Shown one piece after another: positions 55,301 to 61,068 of a DNA stretch of 64,000 nt. The position numbers and the translations under genes were made by a program. Source of the stretch: Eremomyces bilateralis CBS 781.70 (taxonomy: Eukaryota); the NCBI GenBank assembly GCA_010015585.1, contig ML975185.1. One strand, written 5' to 3'. Position 1 is the stretch's first letter, and the number at the start of each line of letters is the position of its first letter. The notes below the pieces were generated by a model, which searched no databases, had not been told where the DNA came from, and saw nothing but the letters and a program-made list of their open reading frames with translations.

Positions 55301-55428
55301 GGGCAGAAATGGTGCTCGCAGATCAACAATCTGGGGGTCGGCTTGCATGGTTAGGAAAGGAAGTTATCGAGGAGATTCGAGCTCGCGTCTGGCTACGAGG
55401 CATGGCGCTTGGTGGAATTCGAGCTTGA
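49376..55428 (+). CDS. APC1: Anaphase-promoting complex subunit 1 (BimE), 2 exons
   Basis: Exon 1 49376-51157, 50-nt intron 51158-51207, exon 2 to 55428. WAWFHSGVSAGL, HAGLLLGLGLNGHL, PC repeats, HLQAFRHLWVLA. Confidence 0.95.
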
Positions 55429-55891
55429 CCATAGCCGCGCTCCGAACCAGTGTCGTTTCGGTTCAGAGCATGTATTGTGCTTCTTGTGGATACCACATGA
55501 AATATATCTCATGAGGCTCCTTTAGAAGAGTATGACTATTTTATGCATTCGCAAAGCGAACCCAAGTTTCTCCCCGTTCATTGATGTGTATGGAATTCTC
55601 TTTCTGAATATTGGAACCTCGTATTTCACGTGAAGTCCTCTCGTTCAAGGGACCAAGTCTATCGTTAGGGCATAGGATGCTGCTCCGCTCAGGGATCATC
55701 TATATACTTGCTGTACACTGACTGACATTGACACTGGTACGGACAGATGCGTACCAGTAGTCCACTGCTCTACGCTGTACAGCGTACTACTACGCTGGCG
55801 ACAACCTGTCCTCCCGCACTAGGGCGGCTTCAGTCGGAAACAACTGGCAAAACATTTCGAACCCGATATTTGATTATCTTCATAGGGGAAT

Positions 55892-57059
55892 ATGGAGAAA
55901 TTCAACCCCTCGGACCTGGCATAGACAATCACACATTGTCCACTCATCGATAACCAGGCCGACCTTATGGGGAGGGCAACGAGAAGTATCCCTTTGAACT
56001 TTCAATACGAAGCCCAAGATGCTTTCTTGAAAGACTACCAGTGTATCTTTTCCTCGTTGCAAGCGGATCACGATCGCCAATTTACAAACCCGACTACTAG
56101 TTTTCCGCCCTGGACGCAAAGTAAGCTGGACGGACTGGGATGATACGCCTGCGGCAGAGCACGCACATATGGACTTGATCCTAATAAACTGGCCAAATAT
56201 GTCACGAAGGTACGCATTGTTTACTCCTCTTTGGCAGCCTAGACAGCATCTCCGTCTGTCGCCCATATAGATGGCGTGGTCAGATCACCACAGCATCATG
56301 CGAACGCGTCTTACGCATTGAGACGGGCAGCGGAGGGAATTCTTCACGATATGCTAAGAATGTGAGTTTGGAGTGTTAAATATCATAACTCAGGAAGGTT
56401 CGGAACACTTTCTCCAGCACATTTTCCACCGAGATCAAGACTCTTCGGATGATCTATGAGTCGCCTGGTTCAAATCAACTGACTGCGATCACTCCAGTCT
56501 TGAAATGACTCTCCACGGCTCCTCAGTCGCTCCTGGGTTCTTCTATGCACTTCAGACGTGCCTCATTATCCTTCATTCCATCTATGATGGACGGAATTGA
56601 CGGAGTAGCGAGCTCATATATCCAGTCTACCGTACATAGAGCTGGTGGGCATCATGACAGCCTACTTGAACAGGGACCTTACACAGCGGCGCTGATATCT
56701 GTTAGGAAAAGGTTCATCAGGAACTGTTAACAGTGTCGAAGGCATGGAGGTATGAGCCAGGGCCATTACTTTCGCCCACGTTAGATCCCTCATTTACTCC
56801 ATGTAGTATTAGGTACCTTAGGTACCATATATGCCATCCATCATGGTCCTTTCCGCTCAGATATGGAGGTCGCAACCGCCGTTTCGCACTTGCTGTCGCA
56901 GGGGGTCGATCTACTGCCACCCTGACGTTATCGGTATTACTTTGATCGCCTTTCTCTAAGAACCTTAACTGCATGTGTCGTTAAGCACCAATATGGTCAA
57001 AATATTCTTTTCAACAAATCAAATTCATTATTCAGCTGGGACCCACCTTAGAGATCAAC
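55892..57059 (+). pseudogene. Decayed N-terminal amidohydrolase domain of FluG
   Basis: Collinear fragments in shifting frames with stops: MEKFNPSDLA*TITHCPLIDNQAD (55892), KYPFE (55984), EAQ, DWD, EGTHCLLL (56206), RVLRIE (56305), VAWFKS (~56460), NILFNKSNSLF (57001). They match the FluG N-terminal half as recalled from memory. Confidence 0.8.
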
Positions 57060-58498
57060 ATGAACCAGTTTCCACCACCGGAGGAGATAATCAGCCTGGA
57101 TATCAACGAAAAATTGAAGCACAACTTCGCTGTGAAGTTCTTCAGAGACCGGGCAACAGTGACCAGGTATGTCTACCTCATGTGGCTAGACTACATGGGG
57201 ACGATGCGGTGTCGGATCCTGCATGTACGGGACCTTCTTCATCTCATCAAAACCGGTAAACGAGTTGGAATCGCCCAAGCAATCATCGGCGTTCTGCAAG
57301 ATGACACCATCACCTCCGCTTGTTCCAGCGTGGGCCAGATCTTCCTCCATCCGGAGTTCACATCCCTACGAGCGTGCCATCCGAAAGATCGTCTTCCGTC
57401 CGCCTCCGTCCTTTGCTCCTGGTACGATGCACTCGGCGACCCTTTCGATCGCTGCCCTCGAAGCATGCTGGGAAAGAGCTTGAATGAAATGGAAGACATT
57501 TACTCGATTATCGCATGTCTTGGCTTCGAGGTGGAGGTAACCTTCCTTCGTCGGACAGGCGACGAGGATAATCCGTTCGAGCCGATTACGAAAAACCACG
57601 CCTGGTGTGCCATGAGCGGTGACCAGTGGAGCAACGCAATGCCGCTTGTAGCGGAGATTGTCTCTGCGCTCGAACTATCTGCCCTCCCAGTCCTGGAATT
57701 CCATGCAGCGCCTGGTCCTGGAAAGTACGATTTTGCCCTACGACCCAAACCCGCGCTCCAAGCGATCGATGCGCTCATACAGACCCGACAAATCATCTAT
57801 CAAATCGCCGAGTTGCATGGGATACGGGCGACGTTGCATCCAGCGCCTGTTCCCGGGGCCGCTTCCGGCGCACATGCTCATATTTCGTTAAACGGCGAGG
57901 AGAGTAGCATGCAGATGCTGGCGGATAACTTCTTTGCGGGCGTGATTGAGCATCTGGAATCGATCTGCGCCTTTTCTATGCCACAGGCTCCGAGCTACGA
58001 CAGGGTCGCCGAAGACCGTTGGACCGGGGGAGTCTGGGTAGCATGGGGTACACAGAATCGCGAGTGTCCACTGCGCAAAGTGAAGAGCAACCACTGGGAA
58101 ATGCGATGCGCGGATGGAACGGCGAACATGTACCTAGCAATAGGTGCTGTGATCGCGGCTGGCCTAGAAGGGATTGATCTTGAAAAGAGCCTAACTCATA
58201 AAGATTGTCAAGGTAATTCCCTATGCCATGCGGAAATGAACACGCGCGCTGACGCTAACACTTCTTAGAAAAGCCGCATAAGATGACTGCGGAAGAGAGG
58301 TTGGAGCATGGGATGACCAAGATGCTTCCCAAGTCTATCGAGCAGTCGCTGCAAGCACTTGAAAAGGACGAGCAGCTGCAGGCCAGAATGGGGCCTGCTA
58401 TGGTCAAGGATTACATCGTAATGAAGAGACAAGAACAGGAAAAGCTGAAGAATATGCCGAAGAACGAAGCCCATGTCTGGCTGGTTGAGAGATACTGA
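57060..58498 (+). CDS. fluG: FluG-like glutamine synthetase / gamma-glutamyl ligase domain protein, 2 exons
   Basis: LDYMGTMRCR, CPRS, GFEVEVTF, HAHIS, WGTQNRECPLR, DGTANMYLA and C-terminal WLVERY. Intron 58213-58268. Confidence 0.88.
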
Positions 58499-59120
58499 TG
58501 CTCTGGGTTTCCCATAGCAATTGGAAGAGTGGATAGCTTGTCTTCCAGCCGAAGGACTAATACCTCTGCTAGACCATGTAACCATATCCCTAATTGGGTC
58601 AGGAGATCAGAACATTCGTTAGCTCAATCAATGGTTCTTAACTTCGGTCCTCGGGAACCCAATGTCTCTGCTCTTCTTCTCGTCGAAATTGTTGTTTCAT
58701 TCCGTCATGATATTCCGGCTTCATATGCCCTTGGGGCAATTCTGCGCAAGAATGTGGATGAAGCCGAAGGATACCATCATGGTACGCAACTGCGATATCA
58801 GGAGCTAGAGCTCGATCCATCCAAACCGGGATAGTCGAATAGAGTATATAAAGGAGAAAGGCTTCACGGCTAAATTTTGTGGACGTTCATCCTCCAGCCT
58901 CAGAGCGGTTGATGAGCGTTTTAGCTCAGGGCAACATAAGTAATCTGTCCTTGGGCACCCAAGGTATTCTCCCGTCATCAGCTCTTGTGCGCTGTCATTT
59001 ATTTCCGATTCTTGTCATCGTCCAGTATTAGCACATGTCCCCCATGTAAATCCCATCAAGAAAATTCGCCGGGGTATCATTTGAATTATAACCATTGCGC
59101 CAGCATGCCAACTCCCTAAT

Positions 59121-59996
59121 TCACGCGTAGGTCCGCAAACAAGTCTCATCGTGCACCGTCTTACACTCTAACCCGCATGTCCGCCCCCCGCACCGCAAGC
59201 ACTTCACCCTTCCCCAATACCCACAGTACTCGCAGAAGAACCGCTGCGGCGGCGCACCCTGCCCCGGAGCCGCCGCCCGCGCCGCCAGATACGACAGTGG
59301 CGGCTCGGCCAACAGCGCTTCGAGATCGTCTGCGGAGGGCATTTGAGGCGCGGACACGGCGAGGAGCGGTTCCCGATCGAGGTCCGTGGCGTTGGGGCCG
59401 GGCGCCGCGGAGGGTTTGGGTGCGGACGCGGAGGACTCGGGGGCGGCAGATGATGGGGTTGGTTGGGGGGTCGAGGCGGAAGGGGGGGTGGGGGTTGGGG
59501 GGACGGAGACTTTGGCGAGCGAGGACCGCTTGCCTCTGGTGCTCGGAAGAGCAGCGCGTAGATTGGATGATGACTGCTGGAGGTTGAGAAGGGCCTCCTC
59601 GTCACTCAGATGGTTGGCGAAGGTCTTCTGCGACTGGAGGATTTTCTTGACAGCGGGCGTGGTTTTCGGTTTCGCTTGACGACCTGGGTTAGCTGGCGCT
59701 TCACGGCCGATGACGCATTGCGGGGACGCACCTCTTCTTGAGTGGACGATCGGAACGGGGATATGGACGTTCGTCGGATTGTCGCGATCGAGCTCGGCGA
59801 TCCGTCGCTGGATGGCCAGCTGCTGGCGGGAGTTGAGTACGCCGGTGGAGGCGGTCGGGACGTTCCGCGCGGCGCGTTTGCGGGCGCCGGAGGGGTTGAT
59901 GGGGACTTTGGAGGGGTCGTAGCCGGTGTCGGGGACGTAGGCCCATCCAGGGGCGGATGCGGACCCGGATGCGGGGAGGACTTCGATGCTGGGCAT
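59121..59996 (-). CDS. VPS71: SWR1 complex subunit Vps71/Swc6 (zf-HIT)
   Basis: PGWAYVPD, KTTPAVKKILQSQKTFANHL, HIT zinc finger FCEYCGYWGRVKCLRCGGRTCGLECKTVH. Probable in-frame intron 59684-59731. Confidence 0.88.
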   Translation of the reverse strand: MPSIEVLPASGSASAPGWAYVPDTGYDPSKVPINPSGARKRAARNVPTASTGVLNSRQQLAIQRRIAELDRDNPTNVHIPVPIVHSRRGASPQCVIGREAPANPGRQAKPKTTPAVKKILQSQKTFANHLSDEEALLNLQQSSSNLRAALPSTRGKRSSLAKVSVPPTPTPPSASTPQPTPSSAAPESSASAPKPSAAPGPNATDLDREPLLAVSAPQMPSADDLEALLAEPPLSYLAARAAAPGQGAPPQRFFCEYCGYWGRVKCLRCGGRTCGLECKTVHDETCLRTYA

Positions 59997-60445
59997 TTTG
60001 TCGTTGGTGTAAAAGCAGTGTTGGCAAGCAATTTGATACTACAATATGTATGATGGGAATGTGAGGGACTGGGATGGGACACGGCTGTGGAAAGATGAGA
60101 GGCAACAAGGCAACAAGGCACTCTAGTGTTTTGACGACACGTTATCACGTGATTCATGACATAGGGTCGTTCAGTCGACATGGATGAGGGAGCCGGTCGA
60201 CATATTTACAGCAACTACGTCATACATTCGTCAAAGGTCATTAAAAGCAACATGTAACTTAAGAAGAGCAATTCAATTTCCCTTACTACCGTGCCCTTCA
60301 AAATCCACCAAGTAACGCAATCCTATTCCAATCCTCATACCAGTACGGACTCCTGCCTCGCACTTCATCGGCGGAAATCGATGTCCTAACCAAGCCAGAT
60401 AGATCATCGTCCGAACCATAATACCTTTCGACATCATCCACCAAC

Positions 60446-60886
60446 ATGTTTCGATCAACCGCCATCCGCACCTCCCGGACGCAGTTCCGCTCCTTCACCA
60501 CTACGCGAGTGGCATCCAAGTCCGTTGTCGAGAATATCAAGACCGCAGCGAAGACCGTCGATCGCGCGGCCTCGGATGCCGCTGTAAAGAGCATTGAGAC
60601 AGGCGGTATGTATCCATCCCGTGTCCCCACCCTGCGTAGATGTTCGTCGGCAACTCGGAGGACCATGGGCTAACGGTCGGTTTTCTTGCATGCAGAGAAG
60701 GTTGCCGGTGCCGTTAAAGGCACAGTGGGCGTCAATACGGGAGAAGCCAAGGGCAAGGCCGAGGAGCTGAAGGGTGAGGCGAAGGGGAAGATGAATGAGG
60801 CGACTGGCAAAGCGAAGGGCACTGCGGAGGAGGCGGCTAGCAAAGCTAAGGGTGGTGCGGAGCAGGCGAAAAGGAAGATGAGCTGA
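60446..60886 (+). CDS. Small LEA-like protein with probable mitochondrial presequence, 2 exons
   Basis: MFRSTAIRTSRTQFRSFTTTR presequence, intron 60606-60695, then 11-mer-like repeats GEAKGKAEELK / GEAKGKMNEAT / GKAKGTAEEAA. Confidence 0.85.
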
Positions 60887-61068
60887 TAGCCTCGGAAAGA
60901 CGAGACAGGGCGTGACGGTGTAGAGATATGGGTTCCATCAGCATTGCTTGCATTTTCCAATTGGCTTGATATTCGGTGGCTTTCCATCCTGTACATTACC
61001 GATATGAAGTCCTTCTCTGGCCCTCGTGGGGCTCAGTAAACGAAGATTGGGTTTGCATCCTCGTGGTT

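Follow-up and report, generated by a model that had tools for sequence, protein, structure and literature searches.

The locus studied here raises the question whether a fluG gene that has lost one of its two halves still keeps the other for some purpose. FluG of Aspergillus nidulans combines an amidohydrolase and a gamma-glutamyl ligase, and its substrate and mode of action are described as still unresolved (PMC6478659). The window, i.e. the whole stretch of 64,000 nucleotides that was analysed, corresponds to C37:62001-126000 of an assembly of 26.9 Mb in 95 contigs. The locus is flanked in it by genes for APC1 (+ strand, ending at 55428) and for zf-HIT and FHA proteins (both - strand). The literature search, which left most subscription papers outside, retrieved nothing on this locus, no naturally occurring E626 variant and no paper joining Eremomyces with fluG.

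A fossil amidohydrolase half upstream of an open ligase half

All eight peptide fragments on which the original prediction of a decayed N-terminal half was based are present, collinear and on the + strand, as are the stops it placed at 55922, 56457 and 57049 (Table 1). The reading frame changes six times between the fragments and a seventh time into the frame of the ORF at 57060. In an alignment of the DNA to a profile of 34 full-length FluGs that allowed for frameshifts, 55925-57036 matched profile columns 15-413 with 97.7 bits and carried about seven frameshifts and five stops. The same profile gave 17.8-21.5 bits with 12 shuffled sequences, 18.1 bits with the reverse complement, 20.8 bits with the reversed sequence and 19.0-28.8 bits with 11 other stretches of the window. 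The score, far above the control maximum, and the lesions together bear out the predicted decay: 55925-57036 is the decayed amidohydrolase half of FluG, left in place. The frameshift count varies with the penalty, being six to nine at penalties 6-10, and at penalties 12 and 15 the alignment contracts to the 5' part of the fossil. Most of the signal indeed lies there, as 55880-56330 alone reached 83.2 bits (shuffle maximum 22.1). Alone, 56330-56640 and 56600-57060 scored 21.7 and 21.6 bits, level with their shuffle maxima of 21.9 and 22.2, and the part 56330-57060 therefore counts through its collinearity only. With tblastn, P0001, P0002, P0005, P0013 and P0033 matched 56200-56325 with E-values of 1e-7 to 4e-6. 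A count of 109 of 120 queries matching upstream was not used, since it includes alignments that begin just before 57060 and continue into the C-terminal half.

Table 1. Positions of the fossil fragments, retained gene parts and altered residues at the fluG locus (window coordinates).
Feature	Position	Strand	Evidence or remark
Probable old fluG start: ATG, 10 codons, TAA stop at 55922	55892..55924	+	in frame with PLIDNQAD
Best-preserved fossil amidohydrolase part, profile columns 15-143	55925..56325	+	83.2 bits; tblastn
Fossil fragment PLIDNQAD	55940	+	
Fossil fragment KYPFE	55984	+	
Fossil fragment EAQ	56009	+	
Fossil fragment DWD	56133	+	
Fossil fragment EGTHCLLL	56206	+	
Fossil fragment RVLRIE	56305	+	
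More decayed fossil part, columns 144-413, with deletions	56326..57036	+	profile alignment; alone at shuffle maximum
Stops within the more decayed part	56363, 56457, 56728, 56782, 56923	+	profile alignment
Fossil fragment FKS	56469	+	
Fossil stretch under RNA-derived contig	56673..57059	.	8 upstream ATGs
Fossil fragment NILFNKSNSLF	57001	+	
Exon 1, GS/gamma-glutamyl ligase half; ATG in old linker	57060..58212	+	PF00120, 8e-45
Altered metal site	57708..57731	+	E626-equivalent Ala (GCG 57708), Q631-equivalent Lys (57723), E633-equivalent Asp (GAT 57729)
Intron, 56 nt, GTAATT ... GCTAAC ... TAG	58213..58268	+	GT-AG; once spliced, product identical to P0121 from residue 37
Exon 2, ligase half, ends WLVERY + stop	58269..58498	+	PF00120, 4e-8

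Judged from its position, the ATG at 55892 is the probable ancestral start of fluG. The amidohydrolase metal motif DNHAH reads DNQAD in the fossil, and nothing aligns with the STDGH motif (D354), which falls in a gap of the weakly aligning part. The fossil lacks the amidohydrolase ligands H20, H22 and D354, and no intact amidohydrolase domain stands in frame with the ligase. The part that adjoins the retained ATG (56330-57060) is more decayed than the distal part, despite strongly conserved columns in intact FluG. Repeat-induced point mutation was rejected as the cause of decay, as the fossil carries no such signature (TpA/ApT 0.71, substrate index 1.24), and Rfam gave no matches in 55400-59200.

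It is very improbable that the N-terminal half is really intact, its lesions being due to faulty assembly or to introns that were overlooked. Introns occur in fungal fluG genes and the homologous loci have one near column 380, but the fossil, at 1112 nt, is shorter than the length needed by the 399 columns it spans and introns thus have no room. When splicing was allowed at consensus sites, the longest path free of stops gained only 144 codons and removed homologous sequence. Contigs of X1 and X2, which possibly come from the source sample and so are not independent checks, show zero differences across the fossil, and the same holds over 56673-57059 for X3, from a separate sample and study; assembly errors thus find no support in these contigs. 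Identity of the fossil to the consensus is 40%, below the 51-75% of seven intact loci.

A genome-wide search with the C-terminal half and the full-length P0001 as queries found no second fluG, full-length or otherwise, but only this locus and a weak match on contig C27. The N-terminal half was not found elsewhere in the assembly either, the four PF04909 loci scoring 18.9-29.1 bits on the FluG N-terminal profile. As its lesions are disabling and the searched assembly, possibly incomplete, yielded no intact copy, the fossil classifies as a unitary partial pseudogene.

The prediction that the C-terminal half stayed open from an ATG in the old linker proved right over 460 codons without stop or frameshift, but with a correction: the ORF of 57060 alone closes at 58268 and the 460-aa product requires the 56-nt intron of Table 1. 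The Eremomyces bilateralis protein P0121 is 100% identical over 91% of the query. The full-length proteins that best matched the ORF were Dothideomycete FluGs with 48-50% identity, and the Gln-synt_C domain of the C-terminal half is orthologous to FluG, nested among Dothideomycete FluGs with a long stem in a quick tree. The start ATG lies about 18 codons past the last N-terminal motif, and the linker is short with 59 codons to the first conserved Trp, versus a median of 108 in the 41 of 75 proteins in which both motifs matched. About eight lesions in 1112 nt of fossil stand against none in 1380 nt of C-terminal coding DNA, where the fossil lesion rate predicts about 10 (crude Poisson P 5e-5). 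The predicted model of the ligase half (pLDDT 86.2, pTM 0.89) has a TM-score of about 0.82 to 4HPP and to GSI, which points to a GS-type fold.

Relatives and the age of the loss

The closest protein, P0122, is 65% identical to the window protein, with a frame free of stops and frameshifts, and it is its sister in a quick tree of 52 rows (SH-aLRT 100, stem 0.83). The original prediction took the start ATG to be new. This does not agree with P0122, which starts with a Met aligned to that of the window protein, nor with the contig X4, in which APC1, the ligase half and zf-HIT follow one another as in the window. Between two anchors in APC1 and the ligase half, X4 has 729 nt versus 2031 nt in the window. 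Its intergenic space would be about 330 nt if the gene ends are equally long, and is too small for a 414-codon N-terminal half regardless. The loss of the N-terminal half thus most likely predates the split of the two lineages, with a fossil left here and a deletion at the X4 locus. X4 has three additional bases between two ligase anchors and P0122 one additional residue, which fits a close relationship of the two without proving it. No further members of the lineage of the window protein and P0122 were found, none of 335 pattern matches for DNA of close relatives in metagenomes was confirmed, and none of the distant loci L010-L033 had APC1, zf-HIT or FHA nearby.

Stand-alone ligase halves occur elsewhere. 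L013:1009-2265 and L020:2078-3334 encode FluG-like ligase halves with 37-38% identity to P0121 and are further stand-alone forms: their upstream 0.9-1.6 kb contain neither an N-terminal half nor a fossil (20.6 and 17.2 bits). Annotated ligase-only FluGs are P0210, P0216, P0217 and P0238 (Friedmanniomyces, Elasticomyces), P0232 (Bathelium) and P0194 (Neocucurbitaria), the last of which occurs beside the full-length P0019. These form separate branches among the two-domain FluGs (four are in the tree), mostly keep E626, and may represent either independent losses of the N-terminal half or gene models that were split. The latter is likely for P0161, a fragment that groups with a 913-aa protein.

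Truncation of fluG has already been reported, which limits the surprise. Some Penicillium species are stated, as data not shown, to have an N- or C-truncated fluG (PMC6231087). These resemble the present case in that one half was lost in a lineage, but in the available part of that report neither a remnant nor an active-site loss is described. The GlnA-only FluG-like proteins FLR/FlrA and small FluG of Beauveria bassiana, with a reported role outside conidiation in B. bassiana (PMC9426541, PMC6231087), likewise consist of a Gln-synt_C domain only but form a separate group, whereas the fossil upstream of the window protein marks its descent from a two-domain FluG. Its best matches are also two-domain FluGs, at odds with FLR single-domain descent, although the tree contained no FLR rows. 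The weak match on C27 is a second, distant GS-like gene with introns and 28-35% identity (L002/L005, C27:170955-174431) and may be the GlnA-only FluG-like member of this genome. Compared with A. nidulans FluG, the order of the two recognisable halves is unchanged and the fold of the C-terminal half appears to be kept, but the N-terminal half is a pseudogene remnant and the C-terminal half naturally carries the equivalents of E626A and E633D.

Active site of the ligase half

In the following, A. nidulans residue numbers were transferred via P0101 (A. spinulosporus, offset +1) and not from A. nidulans FluG itself. E566, E626 and E633 are the ligands of one metal (M-alpha) in A. nidulans FluG (PMC6478659), and the window protein has Glu, Ala and Asp at these positions. 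Position 626 is Glu in 119 of 120 full-length FluGs and in 116 of 118 other, shorter matches, and its column aligns with a glutamate of B. subtilis GS. The M-beta ligands E564, H682 and E752 and the arginines R720, R739 and R744 are all present, as are E566, H684 and W726. The position of E304 in 4LNN, a Glu in true glutamine synthetase I, is a Trp, as is W726 of FluG (PMC6478659, table 3). In P0122, E626 and W726 are each replaced by Gly and E564 by Lys; at the Q631 position both proteins have Lys. Of 63 near-invariant columns, seven are altered in the window protein and nine in P0122, whereas full-length proteins have 0 altered columns in the median and 7 at most. The ratio of the mean distance to 11 matched taxa to the distance among them is 1.34 for the ligase half and 1.03 for the neighbouring FHA domain, the single control gene on which this rate comparison rests.

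Since one metal-binding Glu is lost and a second shortened, the 460-aa protein is, judged from its residues, probably crippled or non-catalytic. The description of the C-terminal half as intact thus no longer holds, and the implied retention of conidiation activity is not supported. In A. nidulans the C-terminal half alone is sufficient, and E626A and other single Ala mutants show reduced conidiation on minimal medium that is still above the null mutant, while most of these mutants fall to the null level on rich medium (PMC6478659).

Altered ligase sites were also seen in other proteins. The full-length FluG P0032 of Pseudovirgaria hyperparasitica carries Lys in place of E564 and E626 and Cys in place of R739. 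E633 is replaced by Lys in P0213, P0231, P0218 and P0073, and the first two of these also have Gly instead of E626. Such losses of the ligase site may be recurrent in Dothideomycetes.

Transcription and possible role of the retained half

X3 was judged to be RNA-derived as it contains three splice joints that are absent from the DNA runs. One strandless X3 contig spans 56673-59962 and covers both the ligase half and its convergent neighbour zf-HIT. In this contig the zf-HIT intron is spliced and the ligase intron, despite good signals, is not, and with strandless contigs the RNA could be either unspliced sense transcript or antisense read-through. The small Ala/Lys-rich gene at 60255-61000 of the window, which may be LEA-like, has introns at 60343-60402 and 60606-60695 for which both spliced and unspliced X3 contigs exist, so unspliced RNA alone is no proof of antisense origin. 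The other end of the 56673-59962 contig falls inside the zf-HIT coding sequence, and 56673 is therefore not a mapped start. If it were the start, the leader with its eight upstream ATGs, of which the one at 56993 overlaps the main ATG out of frame, would be poor for translation. X3 has no cover at 55316-56672, which proves nothing. Any promoter or leader must sit in former coding DNA or further upstream, and a promoter in former coding sequence, as originally predicted, is plausible. A scan for bacterial promoters, a method unsuited to a fungus, gave no sites.

The explanation that we favour, with a probability of roughly 0.55, is that selection kept the frame of the C-terminal half although its usual chemistry was lost or much reduced, leaving a non-catalytic or residual role. 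The only detected fluG lost its amidohydrolase half, the remnant of which is decaying in place, most likely long ago, and the ligase half would be read from the ATG in the old linker. The lesion contrast and the open frame of the relative suggest that selection preserved this frame, and with one M-alpha glutamate lost and another shortened the FluG conidiation signal would probably no longer be made. By analogy, the ligase half might most likely act by binding or as an oligomer, like lengsin, the pseudo-glutamine synthetase of the vertebrate lens, which is an inactive GSI derivative (PMC2667176). Both would have a GSI-family fold without catalysis and a changed N-terminal region, but their origins are separate, and inactivity was shown for lengsin and is only presumed here. 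A more specific proposal, that the protein is a FluG-derived pseudoenzyme and fungal counterpart of lengsin, its fold expressed from a promoter within the fossil and serving a purpose other than catalysis, is possible but tentative; in that case the amidohydrolase half would have been lost first and the E626 ligand thereafter.

That the C-terminal half works on its own as a gamma-glutamyl ligase, perhaps one whose metal site was remodelled or whose substrate is new, seems rather unlikely. This reading would account for the nine other listed active-site residues, the apparently intact predicted fold and a frame preserved in two lineages, and it draws on the function of engineered C-only FluG and the partial function of the Ala mutants in A. 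nidulans (PMC6478659). E626, however, is gone in both members of the lineage and their further losses differ (E633D here; E564K and W726G in P0122), a pattern that suggests relaxed constraint and not a new conserved site. Similarly doubtful is a gene dying in two steps, in which the C-terminal half outlived the N-terminal half and is now silent or neutral, its RNA being read-through from zf-HIT. The well-signalled but unspliced ligase intron in a contig continuous with spliced zf-HIT, the eight upstream ATGs, the faster divergence and the lost conserved residues would fit such a gene, but 460 codons without stop or frameshift, both here and in P0122 at 35% amino-acid difference, do not, and the splicing pattern is weakened as an argument by the neighbouring gene at 60255-61000. 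E. bilateralis is described as without asexual morph (PMC4150071), which fits a dying gene and, as a single correlation, also fits a loss of the conidiation role under the favoured explanation of a frame kept for a non-catalytic or residual role.

The locus naturally combines two laboratory alleles, E626A and the N-terminal deletion, in a species said to lack an asexual morph, and it offers a ready test for a non-catalytic role of FluG. In addition, domain loss can be seen in situ at two stages, as a fossil in this genome and as a deletion in a relative. If the tentative pseudoenzyme proposal is true, FluG function would be separable from both proposed enzyme activities and from conidiation.

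Two observations concern the convergent neighbour. The single RNA contig over 57060-59962 suggests overlapping 3' ends of the ligase half and zf-HIT or antisense read-through between them, and the spliced zf-HIT intron (59675-59731, - strand) ends in AAG instead of the usual YAG.
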